The translations under genes were made by a program, and so were the position numbers. Shown in pieces: positions 404 to 63,074 of a stretch of DNA of 64,000 bases. Under the pieces are notes generated by a model that saw only the letters and a list, made by a program, of their open reading frames with translations, was not told where the DNA came from and did not search any database. The DNA is from a virus (lineage: Duplodnaviria > Heunggongvirae > Uroviricota > Caudoviricetes). The DNA lies in IMG/VR virus record IMGVR_UViG_3300045963_000248, positions 20,510 through 84,509 of that record; one strand, written 5' to 3'. Numbering within the stretch: position 1 is the stretch's first letter; each line of letters opens with the position of its first letter.

Positions 404-431
404 TTGACAAAAAAGTAATTATGAGTATAAT
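404..431 (+). promoter_or_regulatory. early sigma70-type promoter (TTGACA-16-TATAAT), tandem to 340..368
   Basis: ttgaca 404..409, tataat 426..431; flanking sequence is a near-duplicate of the upstream promoter unit. Confidence 0.6.
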
Positions 432-6703: not shown

Positions 6704-6732
6704 AGTTTACCATTAAATTACAATAATGTCAA
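6704..6732 (-). promoter_or_regulatory. sigma70-type promoter, minus strand (TTGACA-17-TAAACT) for 6269..6697
   Basis: revcomp 6727..6732 = TTGACA; revcomp 6704..6709 = TAAACT; 17-nt spacer; overlaps upstream half of late promoter copy 3. Confidence 0.5.
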
Positions 6733-41078: not shown

Positions 41079-41322
41079 ACACTAACTCCGTGTAATTTGG
41101 TATGTGATTTTTATTAAATTTAACCATTCTTCCGATGAATGATTTTTTAAATACTGATTCTTTTGCTTTGTTATTTTCTTTTTTGTATAGCCAGAAAAAA
41201 AATGCTATTGGTTTTTTATAAAAGCCTGTTTCGAGCTGATACTTTTTTTTAAAAGCGAGGACTGTGAAATCCTCGCCTGTATCTTCAATATCCTGTAGAG
41301 CTATTTTATAGAGATCTTCCAT
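40969..41322 (-). CDS. hypothetical protein
   Basis: 117 aa. Confidence 0.35.
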   Translation of the reverse strand: MEDLYKIALQDIEDTGEDFTVLAFKKKYQLETGFYKKPIAFFFWLYKKENNKAKESVFKKSFIGRMVKFNKNHIPNYTELVFEYEKEKFHKKRFTTASKKNKLKKLSKAGKIQEHES

Positions 41323-42085
41323 AAGTTTTACTTTTCTCAGTAAGGTAAACTTCAGTAGCTACTTTTGTTCTGTTAACTTCTGTTTCCTGTTTAAAAGAAA
41401 CTTTAATTGGGTTTGTAATTAAAGGGCAGTTAGCAAATTCTACATTTACAATTCCAAAGAATGTATTAAATTCCTGAGAGTGGGTTCCGCTTAAGTCTCC
41501 ATCACAGGCGACAGTAGCTAATCCGTCTGCAAATCCAGCTTTAATAGCTTTTTCTGGCAACGCATAGTATTCGTCGTGAATTAACGCTTGGTATGCTTTT
41601 AAAGACATATTAGCACGTTTAGCAACGCCAATATCTAAAGCTTCTGCAACGTCTCCGTAAAAATCTACTCTAACGTTTAGTTCCCCCGGAAACTGCCCGC
41701 CTACGCCATTCAGTGCAGCTCTGTGTGACATTAAAACACCAGATTCTGCCATTAATCTTTTTCCCGGTAAAGCTTGCACAATTTGGAATCCCATACTTGC
41801 TGCAAACATTGTAATAGTGTGTATTGGTCTGCGAGAAGTCTTAGCAAAACGGATTAATTCCATTCCTGCGAAAATGCTACCACCCGGAGTATTTAATACT
41901 AAGTAAATTGGCTCTTCGCTAACAAGGTCATTTAATCTCTGGATGTCCACCATAGCAGCAGTAACAGAAGCGCCATCCACTTCAGAAGAAAGAGACACCG
42001 TGTTGTCAGCCTTTAAAATTACAGTTTCAGCCGCAACTGAAAACGACAGCAAAAGCGCTGCAATAATTAACATTTTTTTAAACAT
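41306..42085 (-). CDS. secreted ClpP/S49(SppA/NfeD)-like serine protease
   Basis: Sec signal (MFKKMLIIAALLLSFSVAA); YLVLNTPGGSIFAGMELI matches ClpP/crotonase-fold protease motif. Confidence 0.6.
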   Translation of the reverse strand: MFKKMLIIAALLLSFSVAAETVILKADNTVSLSSEVDGASVTAAMVDIQRLNDLVSEEPIYLVLNTPGGSIFAGMELIRFAKTSRRPIHTITMFAASMGFQIVQALPGKRLMAESGVLMSHRAALNGVGGQFPGELNVRVDFYGDVAEALDIGVAKRANMSLKAYQALIHDEYYALPEKAIKAGFADGLATVACDGDLSGTHSQEFNTFFGIVNVEFANCPLITNPIKVSFKQETEVNRTKVATEVYLTEKSKTYGRSL

Positions 42086-42141
42086 GAAAACTCCTATATG
42101 TTTTTAAGAAAGTAGGAGTATAGCACGGAAGTTAAGTATTG

Positions 42142-42366
42142 TCAATAACTTTTATGTAAAATATTATGAGGATCGTGAATAGTCCAAGTTCCGTCTTTAA
42201 CATGGGCAATAGCCTCCGGCGATAGGCTAAAGTTTCTCGGTTCTCCCTGAAATTTCCACAAACCTACAATGAGTGGAATTCCCTGGGAATACTCAATTCC
42301 TCGGATAAGTATTACCTTTCCATTCAGACTGATTATTTCACCATTATTGTCAAATATATCCAACAT
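42142..42366 (-). CDS. small protein, paralog of 43852..44139
   Basis: shared MLDIFD(N/E)(N/D)G(E/K)II N-terminus. Confidence 0.4.
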   Translation of the reverse strand: MLDIFDNNGEIISLNGKVILIRGIEYSQGIPLIVGLWKFQGEPRNFSLSPEAIAHVKDGTWTIHDPHNILHKSY

Positions 42367-48651: not shown

Positions 48652-48777
48652 TTTTACTCCTAAAGCATAGCAAAAGCTACACAAACAATTCCCAAAACAA
48701 AGTGACCAGTACAGAAACAAATTATAGCGGCAAAAAATAACATAAATCCCCCTTTGCAGTTCCTAGAGTTAGTATAC

Positions 48778-49290
48778 CTATTTTTCAGAAGCTGTCAAGT
48801 CTTTTATAAATCTACTTACACTTTGACGCGGAATTCCATATTTTCTAGATATCTGCATAACTTTTAAACCGTTTTGGAAGTCAATTCTAATCTCAGAAAT
48901 TAACTGAGGCTCGTGAGGTTTATCGCCTTTTTTAGAAACTGAATATCTAGATTTTCCAGCGACGTTATCGGTATTTTCTTTAGCTGATACCCATCTCAAA
49001 TTTGAAACGTGATTATTATTTTTATCTCTATCAATATGATCTATATATTTGTGATTTTCAGGATTAGGAATAAAAGCTTCGGCTACTAATCGATGAATGT
49101 ATTCTTGGTATAATTTAGGATTATACATTCCAACTTTCCAATAACCGTTACCGTTAGTAGAAAGCTTTAAATAAATTTCATTTTTAATTGAATAAACTTT
49201 ACCTGAGTCACAGATACAATAGTTCGGGCACTGAGGGATCACTTTCATGTTCATAAATACTCCTATGTTAATAGGACAAGTATAGCTCAA
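48778..49290 (-). CDS. HNH homing endonuclease (HNH_3 + C-terminal HTH)
   Basis: YWKVG...IHRLVAEAFIPNPENHKYIDHIDRDKNNNHVSNLRWVSAKEN; sits between polA and downstream genes. Confidence 0.8.
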   Translation of the reverse strand: MSYTCPINIGVFMNMKVIPQCPNYCICDSGKVYSIKNEIYLKLSTNGNGYWKVGMYNPKLYQEYIHRLVAEAFIPNPENHKYIDHIDRDKNNNHVSNLRWVSAKENTDNVAGKSRYSVSKKGDKPHEPQLISEIRIDFQNGLKVMQISRKYGIPRQSVSRFIKDLTASEK

Positions 49291-56950: not shown

Positions 56951-56989
56951 TTTTCCCCCTAATTCAGTGTATCATATCTAAAAAACATG

Positions 56990-57172
56990 TCAAGCTTTCT
57001 TTTTTAAAATCTCACTTGGCGGCAAATTCATTAACTTATTTTTTACAGGTTTTGTTTTATTCCTAGATAAATACTTGGAAATAGCTATTTGAGTTTCTCG
57101 TATCATTTCGTCCCACTCTCTCCGAATGCGAGATCCCGGAGGAAACCAATCGTCTATGGTCAGCTTAGCCAC
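56990..57172 (-). CDS. small basic protein
   Basis: 60 aa. Confidence 0.35.
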   Translation of the reverse strand: MAKLTIDDWFPPGSRIRREWDEMIRETQIAISKYLSRNKTKPVKNKLMNLPPSEILKKKA

Positions 57173-57180
57173 TTAAACTC

Positions 57181-57206
57181 CAAAAAGCCGGATTTTAGGC
57201 TCCGGC
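57181..57206 (-). terminator. intrinsic terminator on minus strand (GCCGGA-loop-TCCGGC + U-run)
   Basis: 6-bp stem 57187..57192 / 57201..57206; A-run 57181..57186 on + strand; downstream of 57241..57513. Confidence 0.5.
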
Positions 57207-57240: not shown

Positions 57241-57513
57241 TTAGCCCAATTTAACTAGTAATCTTCTTTTTAACTGTGGAGATTCTTTAGCCTGTGCTTC
57301 ACGCATAGTTTGCTTAAATTCCTCAGTGCTTTTCGGAGAGTTAAAAATCCTTTCGTATTTTGCTTTTGGGTCCTCAACTTGGATTTTCATTCCTTTTTTT
57401 AATTCAATATCTTTAAATACTGAAATCTGTAGGAATTTCTCACCTGTTTGCGAGTTTACATTTTCGTACAATGCTGCGAATTCTACTGGATAATTTGATT
57501 TTACTTCTGACAT
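57241..57513 (-). CDS. hypothetical protein
   Basis: 90 aa, downstream of ERF. Confidence 0.45.
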   Translation of the reverse strand: MSEVKSNYPVEFAALYENVNSQTGEKFLQISVFKDIELKKGMKIQVEDPKAKYERIFNSPKSTEEFKQTMREAQAKESPQLKRRLLVKLG

Positions 57514-57522
57514 TTTTTACTC

Positions 57523-58113
57523 CTAAATACCTAAATCATTTTCAGATTTAGCTGTTGTTTTATTTCTTGAAAAGCTTGGTGCTTTTACTGTTGCTTTTGC
57601 TGCAGAATCTGTGAGTTTTGGCGGTGTATTCCCATCGGCTAAAGTTGCAGCAGTAGATAATTTACCTTCTGGTAAGTTAGGTGCGGAAGCCTTCACTACT
57701 ACAGCTTGCGGAACAGGTCTAGCTTCTGTGCTAGCGTCGGTATCCTCAGATGCCATGCCTAAAATAGCTTGCAAACTGTATCTTCTTAAATACGAAATAG
57801 CTGCACCGGCTTTTTGAGTTACATTTATTTTATTCATTTCTGGAATACCAATACTGGATTCCTCTGAAATGTATTGTCCAGATTTATGTAATAAAATAGT
57901 TGTCAGGGAAACTTCCGTAAGTGTAGATTTACCTACAAGTTGAGTTACCGATAAACCATTTTTTTCTAACACTGGCTTTGCTGTCGCTAAAACGCTAGCA
58001 AGGTCGGAGTAATTGTATCCGTATCCTGAGCTGTCTTTTTTAGCTGTGGAAAGTTCTGCTTGAGCTAACGCTAACGCTGCTCCAATTTCGTTTAAGTTTT
58101 CTGATGTTCTCAT
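57523..58113 (-). CDS. ERF-family single-strand annealing protein
   Basis: SGYGYNYSDLASVLATAKPVLEKNGL resembles P22 Erf N-terminal motif (FGKYKYRSCEDILEGVKPLL). Confidence 0.6.
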   Translation of the reverse strand: MRTSENLNEIGAALALAQAELSTAKKDSSGYGYNYSDLASVLATAKPVLEKNGLSVTQLVGKSTLTEVSLTTILLHKSGQYISEESSIGIPEMNKINVTQKAGAAISYLRRYSLQAILGMASEDTDASTEARPVPQAVVVKASAPNLPEGKLSTAATLADGNTPPKLTDSAAKATVKAPSFSRNKTTAKSENDLGI

Positions 58114-58904
58114 TATTTTCCTCCTACGTGGATTTGTAAATTCGCATTTGAATTTCCAATTGCTTTATTAAAATCTTTTCTGACTTCGTAATCTAAATAG
58201 TCTCGCATTCCGATTCCGTAACGACTAGCTACTTCAGCTTTTACTTTCATTTCTGCATCCAGTAATTCTTTACGCATTGCTACCTGCTCCTGCTGAGCTT
58301 TAATTTCTAACTGCTGATTTCGGGTAACTTGAATTAACTGTAATGATTTCTCAATGTCAGCATTTAATTTTATAGTATTCAAATTCACACGAACGATTCT
58401 GAAAATGTCACCATATTGCTCATTAATAGTTTTTTGTAAAGCTTCTTTAATTTCATCCTCGATCGCTACTCGGTTCGAAGTAATATCTTTAGATTTAAAA
58501 CGTGCTACAGATTTTTGCAATTCGTTTACAAAAGCTTTCTGTAAAATATTATAACCTAAAACGTCATTAGCATTCCCGTTCTCATCTTTAATTCTAGCAA
58601 TGCTTTTAGTTTTTTTGTAAAAAGCAATTACCTTTTCTGGGTTTGTATCAAAAGTTAAATTTGCGTCTAACTCCTGTAATGGAATACTGTCAGCATCCCT
58701 CGCAGTAACGTTATCAGCATGTACGATATTTTGAGTTAAATCTATTGTCTGCATAGAATCTAAAACAACAAATTCAAAACCTGAAGTACGAATATCATCG
58801 TTAATTCTTCCCGAAAAGGTTGTGACGATTCCCGCTTTTCCTTGCTCCACGTAACTACAGCTTGCTAAACTAAATAGCAAACTAATTAATACTACTAATT
58901 TCAT
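58113..58904 (-). CDS. SPFH/band-7 (stomatin/HflK-like) domain lipoprotein
   Basis: lipobox LASC; SPFH-like core GKAGIVTTFSGRI...FEFVVLDSMQ...; coiled-coil C-terminus. Confidence 0.65.
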   Translation of the reverse strand: MKLVVLISLLFSLASCSYVEQGKAGIVTTFSGRINDDIRTSGFEFVVLDSMQTIDLTQNIVHADNVTARDADSIPLQELDANLTFDTNPEKVIAFYKKTKSIARIKDENGNANDVLGYNILQKAFVNELQKSVARFKSKDITSNRVAIEDEIKEALQKTINEQYGDIFRIVRVNLNTIKLNADIEKSLQLIQVTRNQQLEIKAQQEQVAMRKELLDAEMKVKAEVASRYGIGMRDYLDYEVRKDFNKAIGNSNANLQIHVGGK

Positions 58905-58905
58905 T

Positions 58906-59079
58906 TTATACTCCCAATATTGCTAATTCTTCCACGGTAATTCGGGAAAAATCAGTTGTTGAATTTCTTACTTTAAATTTAGCTCTAACTAAATGTTTCT
59001 TTTTTAGCTTACCAGTTTTACTGCCAAACATTTTTGCTAAAGTGCGTTTGTGTACTTTTTTTAAGTCCTCAATTTTCAT
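58906..59079 (-). CDS. small basic protein (57 aa, below ORF-track cutoff)
   Basis: AGGAGA SD 5 nt upstream; MKIEDLKKVHKRTLAKMFGSK... Confidence 0.4.
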   Translation of the reverse strand: MKIEDLKKVHKRTLAKMFGSKTGKLKKKHLVRAKFKVRNSTTDFSRITVEELAILGV

Positions 59080-59249
59080 TTTTTCTCCTGTTGTAATTTA
59101 TCTATTCTATTTGAGCACAGCATGGTATAGTCGAAAGCTAAAAGTATTATTACCACTTTAATCTGTGCGCTAAGCTCCGGACTAAACAATAGCACAAAAA
59201 TTAATACAAAGTCAAGCGCTAATTTTACTTGGTACATTTTAGATTTCAT
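59076..59249 (-). CDS. small TM protein (57 aa), ATGA-coupled to neighbours
   Basis: MKSKMYQVKLALDFVLIFVLLF... Confidence 0.35.
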   Translation of the reverse strand: MKSKMYQVKLALDFVLIFVLLFSPELSAQIKVVIILLAFDYTMLCSNRIDKLQQEKK

Positions 59250-59401
59250 AATTCACTTCCTAGAATTGTAATCCAAAGTATAACTAAAAATCCTATTACT
59301 GTTTTTGGAAATGTAATTACTAAAAAGATACCTAATCCAATAAAACTTAAAAATAAAACGCCTACGCAAAAACTTAAAAATAACTCTACTAAACTATTCA
59401 T
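59246..59401 (-). CDS. small 2-TM protein (51 aa), start overlaps stop of nuclease gene
   Basis: MNSLVELFLSFCVGVLFLSFIGLGIFLVITFPKTVIGFLVILWITILGSEL. Confidence 0.35.
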   Translation of the reverse strand: MNSLVELFLSFCVGVLFLSFIGLGIFLVITFPKTVIGFLVILWITILGSEL

Positions 59402-60269
59402 TTTCGTCCACCTTTTCGTAAATATCGGCTCCGAAACCGGAACCGAAACAATGCGAGTAAAAAGGACATTTCTTTCCAAACGCAAAGCATCCTTTTTTAT
59501 TTTTAGCAAAACTTCTTTTACTAATTTTTGTAAAAGCTTTACTGAATTTTTCCAGAGTTTCCGCGATCAGTTCCGGCGGAGGCTCCCCGACAATAATTTG
59601 TGTACTGAAATCTTTTTTATTTATTGTGAGAAATCCTACAAATTTGTATTCTGGATACGCTGCATTGTATAGCGCAGTCTGTTCTTTTGTTTTAAAACTG
59701 TTCTTCGGGTACGGCGCTGAAGTAGATTTATTATCTAAAATAGCTGCAACAATGCTACCGTCTGGTAACTGTATTTCAGCAATTAAGTCGATAATTCCCC
59801 GAACCAATCCGCCTTGCTTCGGGAACGGTATTTGGAATTCTTTCTGTACAGCAATTACACGAATAATTTTAGGCAGAATGTGTTCCGCGTAAGCTTCCAA
59901 CATTTTTAGCCCTTTTGCTTCCATGCTAAAAAAATGCTCGTAATGTGCTCTTTTGTTTGCGTCTGTTACTCCGGCAATATCCCACTGAACTTCGTCGTCT
60001 ACAATTTCCAGCATTAAATCTGACTTGTAATAGTCAATATTAAAATTCTGCTCGTGCTGTAGCCAGTTATCGATAAACGCTTGTTTAGCTTTTTCCAGAT
60101 TACGTTCCAATAAAAGTATGTTTAGTGCCTCGTCGTAAGCATTCCCGAAAAGTAGCGCAGAAGAAGTTAGAATACTCCTGTAACGTTTTTCGTAATGTAA
60201 TTCGTATTTGTATCCGCACGTCTCCAGAGTTTCTCGGGCACTGTGGCTAAGTTTCTGTATTTTACCCAT
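59394..60269 (-). CDS. PD-(D/E)XK nuclease, Cas4/RecB-like with Cys4 cluster
   Basis: N-terminal LETCGY Cys plus C-terminal CFAFGKKCPFYSHC; pairs with ERF. Confidence 0.65.
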   Translation of the reverse strand: MGKIQKLSHSARETLETCGYKYELHYEKRYRSILTSSALLFGNAYDEALNILLLERNLEKAKQAFIDNWLQHEQNFNIDYYKSDLMLEIVDDEVQWDIAGVTDANKRAHYEHFFSMEAKGLKMLEAYAEHILPKIIRVIAVQKEFQIPFPKQGGLVRGIIDLIAEIQLPDGSIVAAILDNKSTSAPYPKNSFKTKEQTALYNAAYPEYKFVGFLTINKKDFSTQIIVGEPPPELIAETLEKFSKAFTKISKRSFAKNKKGCFAFGKKCPFYSHCFGSGFGADIYEKVDENE

Positions 60270-60366
60270 TAAAAATACTCCTAAAAATAGCCCTAGCTAC
60301 CAAAAATGCTACAGCAAAAACAAAACCTAAAACAATTACGCTAACTGCGCTTGCTAAAAAATGCAT

Positions 60367-60570
60367 TTATAACTCCTCTATATGAACAATTTCAGCCCAG
60401 GAAGATTCAGCTTGCGAAGCTTCTAATATTATCTTCCCCAATACTGTCTTGTCTCTTACGACATAGACTTCTTCCGGATCACCTACTGTTGAATAAAATT
60501 CTAAATTATAAATATTACCAATTAATTGCACAGCTTTGTTATCTATAATTTTTGACGTAATAACTTGCAT
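60367..60570 (-). CDS. small hypothetical protein
   Basis: 67 aa. Confidence 0.35.
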   Translation of the reverse strand: MQVITSKIIDNKAVQLIGNIYNLEFYSTVGDPEEVYVVRDKTVLGKIILEASQAESSWAEIVHIEEL

Positions 60571-60694
60571 ACTATCTCCTATTTTTCATCTATAAAAATC
60601 CTAATTATGGCTCGTCCGGCAATGTATGCTAAAACGCTAATAAATCCAAAAATAACTATACCTAAAATACTTTCTAAAAAATTCACAATAACTC

Positions 60695-62282: not shown

Positions 62283-63074
62283 CTATGGTGCCGTTACAGT
62301 TGCATGGTCGAGCGTGACTGCAGTCTGTGCTAATAATCTTCCATTAATTGTTGCTCCTGTTTGCATTGCAATTAATGTTTGGGAAAGTATATTCCCTTCC
62401 ATGTGTGCTCCTGTACCTACAGTTACAACATCTCCTACGACAAAGAAAATATTCTTAGCTTGGATTCCTCCAGTTAAAATTATATGCATTCCAGAAGCTA
62501 CAGTAACTCCTCCGGCAATCTGTAAAATAATTACATCTTCAGATCCTCCGTTAAAATAAACATCAGAGGCAATTAGTAAACCAGTTCCCCATTTGTATAG
62601 TCCAGGTTCCAAAGTTAGTCCACTAATATTTCCACTAGCTAATTCAGTTGCATCCGGATTAGGTCTGCCCATAGCATCGGTGTAAGCTGCTTCCATATCT
62701 GAAACTGCAGTAGTTAAATTACTCGGAGTCGGGACTGCGTAATTCGCAGCATAGATTTTTCCAGTAACTTGAGCTGAAGTTGAGAAAACATTTGAAGCAT
62801 CGGCTACTAAAGAAAATCCTGTAATAAAAGATGCAGCGGCGGGACTCACTCCTAAATTTCCAGTAATAGTCGAAGGCACCACTGTTGAAATTGCAGCCTT
62901 TGCTAGGATTACAAAATTACCTGCAGTACGCAAGTTTACTGGATCTGGTCCAGCCATTTGTCCGGGATTCTGAGTGTGACCGGAGTCTGCTCCACTCGGC
63001 GGAGAGTCGCTTCCGCAACTTGTTAGCAATAGCAATCCAGCTAGGATTACAATCGCCATTTTTAACTTTTTCAT
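62283..63074 (-). CDS. DUF3494 (ice-binding-like beta-helix) lipoprotein
   Basis: lipobox LLLTSC; LRTAGNFVILAKAAISTV...ITGNLGVSPAA and C-terminal repetitive beta-helix typical of DUF3494. Confidence 0.65.
   Translation of the reverse strand: MKKLKMAIVILAGLLLLTSCGSDSPPSGADSGHTQNPGQMAGPDPVNLRTAGNFVILAKAAISTVVPSTITGNLGVSPAAASFITGFSLVADASNVFSTSAQVTGKIYAANYAVPTPSNLTTAVSDMEAAYTDAMGRPNPDATELASGNISGLTLEPGLYKWGTGLLIASDVYFNGGSEDVIILQIAGGVTVASGMHIILTGGIQAKNIFFVVGDVVTVGTGAHMEGNILSQTLIAMQTGATINGRLLAQTAVTLDHATVTAP

Follow-up and report, generated by a model that had tools for sequence, protein, structure and literature searches.

The window, a stretch of 64,000 nucleotides, is part of a contig of about 84.5 kb with 36% GC that belongs to an uncultivated tailed phage. 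It carries a block of genes running from a Cas4-like nuclease gene to a gene for an ERF-family single-strand annealing protein (Table 1). Every feature of this block is on the minus strand, and the coordinates given in an earlier, sequence-only reading of this DNA were recovered. Three small ORFs, here called orf51, orf57a and orf57b, and a gene for an SPFH/Band-7 lipoprotein are located between the two recombination genes. The earlier reading had placed this group downstream of the ERF/Cas4 pair, whereas its actual position is between the Cas4-like gene and the ERF gene.

Table 1. Features of the Cas4-ERF block and the protease gene discussed in the text (window positions)
Feature	Position	Strand	Remarks
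Cas4-like PD-(D/E)XK nuclease, 291 aa	59394-60269	-	Opens the recombination block as its first large gene
orf51, 51 aa, 2-TM	59246-59401	-	ATG 8 nt inside the 3' end of the Cas4-like gene
orf57a, 57 aa, 2-TM hairpin	59076-59249	-	ATGA overlap
orf57b, 57 aa, basic, soluble	58906-59079	-	ATGA overlap
SPFH/Band-7 lipoprotein, 263 aa	58113-58904	-	1-nt spacer before the start, no overlap
Lipoprotein signal peptide of the SPFH protein, MKLVVLISLLFSLAS-C16	58857-58904	-	Lipobox L-A-S-C, Ser at +2; direct sequence reading
ERF-family single-strand annealing protein, 196 aa	57523-58113	-	TAATG, 1-nt overlap with the SPFH stop
90-aa ORF, last gene of the operon	57241-57513	-	Conserved together with ERF
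Terminator-like GC-rich hairpin and T-run	57187-57206	-	Probable 3' end of the transcription unit
Secreted ClpP-family protease	41306-42085	-	Pfam CLP_protease 1.4e-13 and Sec-type signal peptide, MFKKMLIIAALLLSFSVAAE

The two recombination genes are identified, the first by Pfam PDDEXK_1 (2.4e-12) and the PHROG exonuclease family (3.5e-12) and the second by Pfam ERF (8.4e-23) and the PHROG Erf-like family (3.7e-34). The 90-aa ORF gave no family match in Pfam or PHROG. It has a homologue with 69% identity behind ERF in the related locus L016 (dN/dS 0.13). Beyond the hairpin, the next minus-strand match to the strict promoter motif is found at 56966-56993. Sequences resembling Shine-Dalgarno (SD) sites are present at the right spacing, one per ORF (GGTGGA, AGGAAG, AGGAGA, GGGAG and AGGAGG). 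The AGGAGG of the ERF gene is encoded, according to the junction sequence, by the C-terminal codons V-G-G-K of the SPFH gene, and the last codons of orf57b hold the SD used by whichever gene comes next. It had been claimed that four ORFs are chained by overlaps. This is correct for orf51, orf57a and orf57b, but the SPFH gene is set off by a spacer. Overlaps are found at 23 of the 73 same-strand junctions of this genome and gaps of 0-10 nt at 15 more; such a chain is not unusual here, because tight packing is the norm genome-wide. The packed chain of genes also extends upstream of the Cas4-like gene.

The 263-aa protein is shown to be a full-length SPFH/Band-7 protomer, with an SPFH domain, a long wall helix and a cap helix. 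Pfam Band_7 (PF01145) matches residues 19-206 with E = 9e-14 (52.3 bits, cut-off 23.6), and a precomputed PF01145 match exists for all 22 homologues (55-100% identity). The AlphaFold2 (AF2) monomer model (pLDDT 74.5) has strands up to residue 180 followed by helices at 182-228 and 233-250, so that a signal peptide with lipobox, the SPFH domain, a coiled-coil helix of about 47 residues and a C-terminal helix can be distinguished. Foldseek comparison of the model with the PDB gave erlin1/2, prohibitin, HflK/C, stomatin and QmcA, all with probability 1.00 (E = 7e-13 to 7e-9, about 240-290 alignment columns), and comparison with viral models also supports the assignment. A sequence-profile search of the PDB had no match for the protein. 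The N-terminus consists of MK as n-region, LVVLISLLFS as hydrophobic h-region and then LASC16, in agreement with the lipobox pattern [LVI][ASTVI][GAS]C. None of the 22 homologues departs from Cys16, and all of them have a tetrapeptide resembling a lipobox; the distant SPFH proteins of cultured phages likewise have lipoboxes. The predicted membrane anchor is a lipoprotein signal (lipobox LASC) that replaces the usual N-terminal TM segment. The sequence-only identification of a 263-aa SPFH lipoprotein is thereby borne out by Pfam, fold, Foldseek and lipobox together. Conservation among the homologues peaks at about residues 176-215, where the SPFH domain ends and the wall helix lies, which is compatible with a predicted oligomer interface. 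The GC content of the gene (33%) does not deviate from that of the genome.

Searches for wider relatives gave little. Neither the SPFH protein nor the small ORFs belong to a PHROG family, no PADLOC-DB model matches the SPFH protein, orf51, orf57a or the Cas4-like protein, and the NCBIfam search gave nothing meaningful. The locus had no blastn match among GenBank phages. Relatives of the SPFH protein were found neither in IMG/VR, scanned with the single protein and with the alignment, nor in GTDB genomes, and a metagenome scan added only the loci L014 and L015.

The gene orders of the relatives place the SPFH gene in different surroundings within the early region. At least seven other gene contexts contain SPFH homologues (55-81% identity) that have no homologues of the small ORFs beside them. 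The order is PDDEXK then SPFH in L015, and PDDEXK, Macro, SPFH, an 84-aa ORF and ERF in L013, while in L004 to L011 the SPFH gene adjoins RNR, PhoH or Thy1 genes. A 49-aa 2-TM ORF abuts the SPFH gene in L012. The locus L016 has the order Cas4 (73% identity), 47-aa ORF, 54-aa ORF, orf57a, a 47-aa 2-TM ORF, orf57b (93%), ERF (67%) and the 90-aa ORF. There is no SPFH gene at the junction of orf57b and ERF in L016, where orf57b abuts ERF directly, and no SPFH protein of this contig was among the matches of the SPFH search. The L016 contig is probably incomplete, since it is 50 kb long and that of the window phage 84.5 kb, and a divergent SPFH gene elsewhere in that genome is possible. A promoter-like TTGACA-17-TAnAnT motif lies directly upstream of the SPFH gene in L006, L009, L015 and L007/L011. 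Within the window this motif family has six matches (0.43 expected), none of them upstream of the SPFH gene, and none is found upstream of it in L012 either; in both the gene sits inside an operon. A generic promoter scan of the locus stayed at chance level (16 matches, 14.7 expected). The comparison of gene orders shows the SPFH gene as an apparent accessory cassette, variable in presence and position among relatives. In one sub-lineage, represented by the window and L012, it is to all appearances spliced into the recombination operon, and these are also the only two among the 22 homologues compared whose SPFH proteins end in the tail HVGGK.

For two of the small ORFs, orf57a and orf57b, three genomes show conservation at the protein level. 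Over three comparisons dN/dS is 0.08-0.20 and pN is far below pS (Fisher p 1e-4 to 7e-7). For orf57a the homologues are 61-67% identical in L012 and 60-66% in L016, varying with alignment method, and dN/dS is 0.13-0.20 (Fisher p <= 3e-5). L009 and L006 have more distant homologues, located about 4 kb from the SPFH gene (z about 8 against shuffles). The protein had been described as having one TM segment. Two hydrophobic segments are found instead, at residues 7-28 and 30-46, followed by a charged C-terminal tail, and by its predicted topology orf57a is a 2-TM hairpin. It belongs to a family of small membrane proteins that is conserved across this lineage of phages. Conservation within the block is strongest for orf57b, with 93% identity in L016 and 84% in L012 (dN/dS 0.08-0.16, p <= 1e-4). 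With 16 K+R and 5 D+E its net charge is about +11, in agreement with its earlier description as basic. An AF2 model gives three helices (pLDDT 69), for which the fold search had no significant match, and no Pfam or PHROG family includes the protein. Matches to Pfam IMS_HHH_1 (E = 0.0063, below the cut-off) and PADLOC JetD (E = 0.015) were taken as chance.

GenBank has 120 phage records with an annotated SPFH lipoprotein, so the statement that an SPFH module of this kind is not a standard phage function was too strong. Such proteins have been noted in phages since 2006, always with function unknown (PMC1524935; PMC10892097; PMC7760394; PMC13239085), and an HflK/C-like lipoprotein, PM0222, is encoded by a prophage of Pasteurella multocida (PMC9872710). 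The six cultured phages examined are Kuttervirus maane, Erwinia Bue1 (where the ORF is unannotated), Burkholderia BCSR5, Acinetobacter Bphi-R2919 and phiAB441, and Synechococcus phage B3. All six have a 54-92-aa 2-TM ORF immediately upstream of the SPFH gene, usually with a start/stop overlap, and three of these 2-TM proteins are mutually homologous. This recurrent pairing leaves room for a small membrane partner. A two-component envelope module could accordingly be present in the window as well, made up of the SPFH lipoprotein and a small 2-TM protein (orf57a or orf51, or the 49-aa ORF that adjoins the gene in L012) that would correspond functionally to the membrane partner of SPFH-NfeD or HflK/C-FtsH systems. 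The window operon, with its two 2-TM ORFs, would fit such a module. However, the 2-TM families of maane gp66/BCSR5/Bue1 and R2919 gp3/AB441 had no match to orf51, orf57a or the L012 49-aa ORF (hmmsearch and phmmer; every ORF of 30 aa or more in the window and the loci was searched), and orf57b stands between the 2-TM ORFs of the window and the SPFH gene. Furthermore, no credible 2-TM ORF lies within 900 nt of the SPFH gene in L005, L006, L009, L011, L013 and L015, and L016 has both orf57a and the L012-type 2-TM ORF with no SPFH gene in the slot. The adjacency can also be due to chance, because the early regions of phages often contain small TM ORFs. The module is therefore judged unlikely for the window. 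Its more specific form, that phage SPFH proteins and a diverged 2-TM partner (orf57a, orf51 or the L012 49-aa ORF) enclose a membrane protein of host or phage in a periplasmic cage with a lipid anchor, blocking superinfection or timing lysis, is a speculation to which we give a somewhat lower probability still. If true, phages would have in this pair their own analogue of SPFH-NfeD or HflK/C-FtsH. To our knowledge no phage system of this type has been described.

Another reading gives the block a role in recombination, with orf57b and perhaps the SPFH protein as accessory factors of Cas4 and ERF, such as an Arf-like cofactor or a membrane tether for DNA. The basic, strongly conserved orf57b is immediately upstream of erf in L016, and this matches the position of arf in P22, an annotated 47-aa Erf cofactor gene that overlaps erf; both are very small ORFs coupled to the 5' end of erf. 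The two differ, since P22 Arf is acidic, of opposite charge and without sequence similarity to orf57b, and in the window the SPFH gene lies between orf57b and ERF. Homology of orf57b to P22 Arf was ruled out by a Smith-Waterman score of 13 against a shuffle mean of 16.7. SPFH homologues are far from Cas4 and ERF in other relatives, and an exported lipoprotein cannot touch cytoplasmic DNA; because of this topology a recombination role for the SPFH protein is implausible. The recombination reading as a whole is considered improbable.

The three small ORFs had all been taken as genes, and the evidence is not equal for the three. If they were not genes, the interval between Cas4 and SPFH would be an untranslated spacer or regulatory sequence. 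The purifying selection seen in three genomes rejects this for orf57a and orf57b, which are, as judged from their substitution patterns, real genes. Each of the three ORFs has an SD, together they occupy the interval without remainder, and independent gene callers predict all three. The codon-usage score prefers the annotated frame in each case, with no separation from antisense ORFs. Only orf51 offers some ground for the spacer idea. It is an orphan with only circumstantial coding evidence. It is very hydrophobic, has 24% GC and, with its SD (GGTGGA) and 8-nt Cas4 overlap, has the best codon score of the six frames, a score that 13% of antisense ORFs also reach. Only orf51 itself was found among 1.84e9 representatives. 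It is absent from the syntenic relatives L012 and L016, and L012 has a 184-nt ORF-free stretch at its position. Homology to the L012/L016 2-TM ORF was ruled out (z <= 0), and so was an RNA element, as neither an Rfam match nor a stable fold (z = -1.2) was found over orf51. That the interval is non-coding throughout has little probability.

The ClpP-like protease had been correctly read as secreted, with both a CLP_protease domain and a signal peptide present. Long-form NfeD proteins contain a ClpP-class protease domain. It had been proposed that the SPFH protein, the TM mini-ORFs and this ClpP/S49-like protease make up a phage counterpart of the SPFH-NfeD membrane-microdomain/protease system, with the protease either acting on the SPFH cage or being controlled by it. 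The SPFH and protease genes both belong to the early region, and the protease would share the periplasm with the SPFH lipoprotein because of its Sec signal peptide. The gene distribution speaks against the proposal. The protease gene is about 16 kb from the SPFH gene and has a predicted strong consensus promoter of its own at 42117-42145. The protease has 792 homologues and the SPFH protein 22, and none of the other long SPFH contigs (70715, 78263, 81315, 59276 and 36095 bp) is among the best 120 of the 792 protease matches. A homologue of the protease (P0046, 58% identity) is encoded on the L016 contig, where SPFH is missing both from the slot and from the list of SPFH matches. No NfeD domain (PF01957) was found by Pfam (E <= 0.01-1) in orf51, orf57a, orf57b, Cas4, ERF, the 90-aa ORF, a 146-aa ORF or the ClpP-like protein, which has no TM segment after the signal peptide and protease domain; the mini-ORFs are too short for an OB domain. 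With the variety of SPFH gene contexts added, a module of this kind is very improbable.

Taken together, it is probable, with room for doubt, that the interval makes up the central part of a densely packed early operon of a tailed phage in which the SPFH gene is an accessory cassette and the mini-ORFs are independent passengers. The passengers would then be a lineage-wide 2-TM miniprotein (orf57a), a basic protein that travels with Cas4 and ERF (orf57b) and an orphan (orf51). Translational coupling in this locus reflects genome compaction and not a dedicated SPFH complex. The SPFH gene appears welded into the recombination operon, as it would take its SD from the 3' end of orf57b and supply that of ERF from its own last codons. 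From the protein sequence and the monomer model (pLDDT 74.5) we infer lipidation, localisation and oligomerisation. The protein would be exported by Sec, lipid-modified at Cys16 and assembled by means of its conserved coiled coil to form a ring or cage at the periplasmic side of a host membrane, like HflK/C. Such a cage may, in the early phase of infection, enclose a patch of membrane or an envelope protein of the host. The phage would most likely gain by taking over the envelope, whether to exclude superinfecting phages, to guard against lysis that comes too soon or against envelope stress, or to control a membrane protease of the host. In Kuttervirus and Erwinia Bue1 (Ackermannviridae) the SPFH gene lies among spanin and 'superinfection exclusion'/sie-like genes. 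By this guilt by association an envelope or superinfection-exclusion role is weakly suggested, as the cultured-phage proteins are distant (24-28% identity with the window protein, tblastn E 1e-11 to 9e-5).

Clues to the host are few. No tRNAs were found, the best cultured match of the terminase (26.5% identity) is from a Silvanigrella phage, and an ice-binding-like gene has homologues with 55-68% identity in MAGs of many unrelated phyla. The consistent SDs and the promoters of TTGACA/TATAAT type point to a host in which sigma-70 and SDs are used in the classical way.

The locus adds an environmental phage lineage with 22 SPFH homologues in which the gene appears to be a movable accessory cassette, with neither the mini-ORFs nor the secreted ClpP-like protease as an obligate partner. 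Its practical value is chiefly negative, since an unsupported SPFH-NfeD-like phage module is removed. The pairing of 2-TM and SPFH genes in cultivable phages (Kuttervirus, Acinetobacter phages) is a tractable entry to the function of phage SPFH cages.

Compared with known systems, the window shares features with several. SPFH-NfeD operons such as QmcA-YbbJ and PH1511-PH1510 also combine an SPFH gene with genes for small membrane proteins, and a ClpP-fold serine protease is found in the same genome. The window differs in that no NfeD OB-fold was detected and the protease gene lies apart from the SPFH gene, is transcribed separately and is not inherited together with it. The association of SPFH and NfeD in operons is covered in a review (Yokoyama & Matsui 2020, as cited in PMC9872710). 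The protease of long-form NfeD (STOPP-type) has its counterpart in the CLP_protease domain of the window protein, which is without an NfeD domain and without linkage to SPFH.

HflK/HflC and the other cage-forming SPFH proteins (prohibitin, erlin, stomatin, QmcA and flotillin) have the same domain order of anchor, SPFH domain, wall helix and cap helix, and HflK/C has the same orientation towards the periplasm as predicted for the window protein. The latter has 13-20% sequence identity to them and a predicted lipid anchor in place of a TM segment. It is encoded by a single gene, whereas HflK and HflC are a pair, and no FtsH or NfeD partner is nearby.

Phage morons and accessory lipoproteins, for example Llp of T5 and PM0222 of the P. 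multocida prophage, are likewise position-variable, dispensable genes for predicted exported lipoproteins that would act on the envelope of the host. In several of the relatives the SPFH gene follows a promoter-like motif. The window gene differs, being without its own promoter and translationally welded into an operon of essential function. The SPFH proteins of Kuttervirus (Salmonella phage maane gp67), Vi01-like phages, Erwinia Bue1, Burkholderia BCSR5 and Acinetobacter Bphi-R2919 and phiAB441 are of the same length class (259-267 aa). They share with the window protein the N-terminal lipobox, the SPFH domain, the C-terminal coiled coil and the status of an accessory phage gene. In the cultured phages examined a small 2-TM ORF is in front of the gene, whereas in the window the gene follows the basic, soluble orf57b within a Cas4-ERF operon.

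The genes of the SPFH block all lie on the minus strand, and each ORF is preceded by a Shine-Dalgarno-like sequence with proper spacing. The chain of ORFs described in the sequence-only reading, consisting of three mini-ORFs (orf51, orf57a and orf57b) and the SPFH gene, is present. Its position is not downstream of an ERF/Cas4 pair; read 5' to 3' on the minus strand, the block is situated between the Cas4-like gene and ERF. The tight chain is real but ordinary for this densely packed genome: of the 73 same-strand junctions in the window, 23 are overlaps and another 15 leave 0-10 nt between the genes. The sequence of the window is that of a phage, with structural genes (portal, terminase) on the plus strand up to ~40.6 kb; past that point, early and DNA-metabolism genes (DnaB, RNase H-like, dNMP kinase) occupy the minus strand.

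Features of the window, and SPFH loci in metagenome relatives (percentages after a locus: identity to the window SPFH protein) and cultured phages
Feature	Position	Strand	Remarks
Cas4-like nuclease, 291 aa	59394-60269	-	Pfam PDDEXK_1 2.4e-12; PHROG exonuclease
orf51	59246-59401	-	ATG 8 nt within Cas4 3' end
orf57a	59076-59249	-	ATGA overlap
orf57b	58906-59079	-	ATGA overlap
SPFH gene, 263 aa	58113-58904	-	1-nt spacer after orf57b
ERF	57523-58113	-	TAATG overlap with SPFH; Pfam ERF 8.4e-23
90-aa ORF	57241-57513	-	after ERF
Terminator-like hairpin	57206-57187	-	3' of 90-aa ORF
ClpP-like protease	41306-42085	-	
34- and 35-aa mini-ORFs	60262-60366, 60579-60686	-	paralogous
67-aa ORF	60367-60570	-	between the 34/35-aa mini-ORFs
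Ice-binding-like protein	62283-63074	-	Pfam 3.4e-67
Papain-family cysteine peptidase C1	61545-62276	-	4e-18
TTGACA-N16-18-TAHAMT	340-368, 404-431	+	
TTGACA-N16-18-TAHAMT	6704-6732, 42117-42145, 48771-48798, 56966-56993	-	42117-42145 directly before protease gene
L012 (85%)			Cas4, gap, orf57a, orf57b, 49-aa 2-TM ORF, SPFH, ERF
L015 (81%)			PDDEXK nuclease, 46 nt, SPFH
L013 (77%)			PDDEXK, Macro-domain gene, SPFH, 84-aa ORF, ERF
L004 (69%)			upstream: 77-aa lipoprotein and 55-aa ORF
L007, L008, L011 (65%)			PhoH-like ATPase upstream in all three; class I ribonucleotide reductase (RNR) genes downstream in L007/L008
L005, L014 (63%)			L005: stand-alone after divergent gene pair
L006, L009 (58%)			beside class II RNR / Thy1, 1-2 kb upstream of PDDEXK gene
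L016 (50-kb viral contig)			146-aa ORF, Cas4 (73%), 47 aa, 54 aa, orf57a (60%), 47-aa 2-TM ORF, orf57b (93%), ERF (67%), 90-aa ORF (69%), DnaB (percentages: identity to window counterpart)
orf57b in relatives	L016 6001-6174, L012 542-715		used in dS comparison
Macro-domain gene	L013 1228-1677		
Post-SPFH stretch	L007 2756-2904, L011 5790-5920		
2-TM + SPFH in cultured phages	L017 2762-3762, L021 1295-2268, L019 1075-2283, L018 1270-2321, L020 1171-2250, L105 1258-2286		
Bue1 2-TM ORF	L021 1295-1489		vB_EamM-Bue1, NC_048702

The assignment of the gene to the SPFH lipoproteins is upheld by profile, model and lipobox. Residues 19-206 match Pfam Band_7 (E = 9e-14, 52.3 bits against a cut-off of 23.6). 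In the AlphaFold2 model (22 homologues as input, pLDDT 74.5), an SPFH alpha/beta domain is followed by a helix of ~47 residues (182-228) and a helix at 233-250. In Foldseek against the PDB the model aligned over ~240-290 columns with the protomers of erlin1/2, prohibitin, HflK/C, stomatin, QmcA and flotillin (E 7e-13 to ~7e-8, probability 1.00), all builders of membrane-attached cages; no PDB relative was found by sequence alone. At the N-terminus, MKLVVLISLLFSLAS-C16 constitutes a lipoprotein signal peptide whose lipobox is LASC. All 22 homologues retain Cys16, and each has a lipobox-like tetrapeptide. Fold and conserved lipobox together describe a putative minimal cage protomer with a lipid anchor in place of a TM anchor, and from this anchor a periplasmic orientation, like that of HflK/C, is predicted.

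The 22 SPFH homologues, at 55-100% identity, are all metagenomic; IMG/VR and GTDB genomes yielded none. Their gene contexts differ, and no credible hydrophobic ORF was found within 900 nt of SPFH in L005, L006, L009, L011, L013 or L015. No SPFH gene is present in the syntenic L016 locus, and the contig is also missing from the SPFH homologue search result. By comparison of these loci, SPFH is present without the mini-ORFs in some relatives, and the mini-ORFs are present without SPFH in the same slot in L016. The last codons of orf57b (…GAATTAGCAATATTGGGAGTATAA) hold the Shine-Dalgarno sequence of whichever gene is next, ERF in L016, the 49-aa ORF in L012 and SPFH in the window. The SPFH C-terminus HVGGK (GTAGGAGGAAAATAATG), found in the window and L012 only, encodes the AGGAGG Shine-Dalgarno sequence and the start of ERF. 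A TTGACA-17-TAnAnT promoter, of a type strongly over-represented in the window, is located directly upstream of SPFH in L006, L009, L015 and L007/L011. The variable contexts, the junction sequences and the promoters of its own in relatives argue for an accessory, mobile cassette, apparently moron-like and autonomous in several relatives and, within the sub-lineage of the window, embedded in an early recombination operon.

The slot between the PDDEXK and SPFH genes is a hotspot for accessory cargo; in L013 it is filled by a Macro-domain gene in place of the three mini-ORFs of the window. A non-coding stretch of ~100 nt 3' of SPFH (…ggtgtaggacccctttt aattgtaaccc…gatggtgagaatgaaaattcg…) is visibly conserved between L007 and L011, and the L007 copy is closely followed by the RNR small-subunit gene. 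The stretch is a candidate regulatory RNA or leader.

The three mini-ORFs had been proposed as genes, and for orf57a and orf57b this is borne out. Each has a homologue in L012 and in L016, both of them syntenic relatives. Across the three pairs (Nei-Gojobori; window, L012, L016) dN/dS is 0.13-0.20 for orf57a and 0.08-0.16 for orf57b, a range shared with Cas4, ERF and SPFH (0.10-0.15), and every pair has a pN far lower than pS (Fisher p 1e-4 to 7e-7). These values indicate, from substitution patterns, that both are real protein-coding genes. Distant orf57a homologues in L009 and L006 have the common motif ..A(F/I)(D/E)YTML.. (z ~8 vs shuffles). By hydropathy, residues 7-28 and 30-46 of orf57a form two hydrophobic segments, rather than the single TM segment first assigned; the two TM segments assigned to orf51 hold, as it is hydrophobic over nearly its whole length. 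The orf57b product, soluble and strongly basic (16 K+R vs 5 D+E), is better conserved than any other protein of the block (93% identity to L016 vs 73-74% for Cas4/ERF). Its model has three helices (pLDDT 69), and a fold search with it gave no significant match.

Synonymous divergence of orf57b is far lower (dS 0.41-0.62) than that of Cas4, ERF and the 90-aa ORF (1.2-2.2). The 3' partner of orf57b differs by phage, being ERF, a 2-TM ORF or SPFH. It may be a conserved linker at which cassettes are exchanged; alternatively, it may be under extra nucleotide-level constraint.

That orf51 is a protein-coding gene is unproven. A search of 1.84 billion representatives returned only itself. At its position L012 has a stretch of 184 nt with no ORF and L016 has two soluble, unrelated mini-ORFs. 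On comparison it proved unrelated to the L012 and L016 2-TM ORFs, and no support was found for an RNA element. Coding is hinted at by a Shine-Dalgarno sequence, an exactly filled gap and prediction by independent gene callers; the annotated frame has the top codon score of the six, a score that is non-discriminating.

Mini-ORFs are also found elsewhere in the window. Two of them, 34 and 35 aa long with one TM segment each, are paralogous (MHFLASAVSVIVLGFVFAVAFLVARAIFRSIFNG and MNFLESILGIVIFGFISVLAYIAGRAIIRIFIDEK; z = 10 vs shuffles). Both have a Shine-Dalgarno sequence, neither was predicted by the gene callers, and together they fit exactly into the gaps on either side of a 67-aa ORF. The whole insert is situated between a gene for a 146-aa membrane protein and Cas4; it is missing from L016, in which Cas4 directly adjoins the 146-aa gene. 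The early region also encodes an ice-binding-like protein and a papain-family peptidase. Homologues of the former (55-68% identity) are spread over MAGs from a great many unrelated phyla, both bacterial and archaeal, which suggests a highly mobile gene, useless for host assignment. The six TTGACA-N16-18-TAHAMT matches in the window (0.43 expected) suggest that the phage relies on sigma-70-type promoters of its host; this speaks against a host of the Bacteroidota type.

A secreted ClpP-like protease had been proposed to complete an SPFH-NfeD-type module. The protease itself was correctly described, since it belongs to the ClpP family (Pfam 1.4e-13) and has a Sec-type signal peptide (MFKKMLIIAALLLSFSVAAE) and an ASMG serine motif. 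It has neither an NfeD domain nor a TM segment past the signal peptide, and no NfeD match was found among the SPFH neighbours. The gene is 16 kb from SPFH, immediately after its own consensus sigma-70-like promoter. The protease has 792 detectable homologues (metagenomes, many on 50-120-kb contigs) vs 22 for SPFH, and among the best 120 of the 792 the window phage is the only apparent overlap with SPFH contigs. The homologue P0046 (58% identity) is on the same contig as L016, where SPFH was not found. A functional SPFH-NfeD-like module is therefore not supported. The best PHROG matches of the protease are head-maturation proteases; despite these it has an early-region location and an exported look. 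A periplasmic phage ClpP-like protease (export is predicted) is unusual in itself.

The role considered most likely for the SPFH protein is envelope takeover. It would be exported by Sec and lipidated at Cys16, and Ser at +2 would favour outer-membrane sorting if the E. coli rule holds in the phage host. Homo-oligomerization through the highly conserved segment 176-215 could then give a periplasmic ring or cage, which early in infection would wall off a patch of membrane or an envelope protein of the host. Superinfection exclusion is one candidate purpose; others are protection from premature lysis or stress, and control of a host membrane protease, for which the control of FtsH by HflK/C is the model. 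The SPFH gene of Kuttervirus and Erwinia Bue1 is found among spanin and 'superinfection exclusion' genes, a weak and indirect pointer to an envelope role.

In 6/6 cultured phages examined, a 2-TM ORF of 54-92 aa is located directly upstream of a distant SPFH gene, mostly with start/stop overlap. These are Salmonella phage maane (Kuttervirus; gp66, 69 aa), Erwinia Bue1 (64 aa, unannotated), Burkholderia BCSR5 (65 aa, with a tRNA between ORF and SPFH), Acinetobacter Bphi-R2919 (83 aa) and phiAB441 (92 aa), and Synechococcus phage B3 (gp43, 54 aa). The proteins of maane, Bue1 and BCSR5 are mutually homologous, as are the two from Acinetobacter. The two genes may form a conserved phage module, a reading testable in cultivable phages. 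No homology of these proteins to orf51, orf57a or the L012 49-aa ORF was detectable and most of the SPFH family of the window lacks an adjacent 2-TM ORF; the window locus was therefore not assigned to this pair. The Bue1 ORF (MFILRFALIFIVLAFAGFFFWK...), homologous to maane gp66, ends exactly at the start of the annotated SPFH 'lipoprotein' gene and has the look of a gene overlooked in the RefSeq entry.

SPFH proteins are already on record in phages. With tblastn, weak relatives (24-28% identity) were found in 120 GenBank phage records, namely Ackermannviridae of Salmonella, E. coli and Erwinia, Burkholderia BCSR5, and Acinetobacter and Synechococcus phages. Many are labelled 'SPFH domain band 7 family protein' or 'lipoprotein'. 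In BFVD, 27 viral SPFH models from tailed phages and giant viruses match at E <= 1e-3. SPFH ORFs of the T4-like phages 44RR, Aeh1 and RB43 were on record in 2006 (PMC1524935), and RaK2-like jumbo phages encode SPFH proteins of 'function poorly understood' (PMC7760394). An HflK/C-like SPFH protein of a Pasteurella multocida prophage is OMV-secreted and signals via TLR1/2, a lipoprotein-sensing receptor pair (PMC9872710). These earlier records place the window gene, as judged by sequence, as a divergent newcomer among already known, functionally uncharacterised phage accessory genes.
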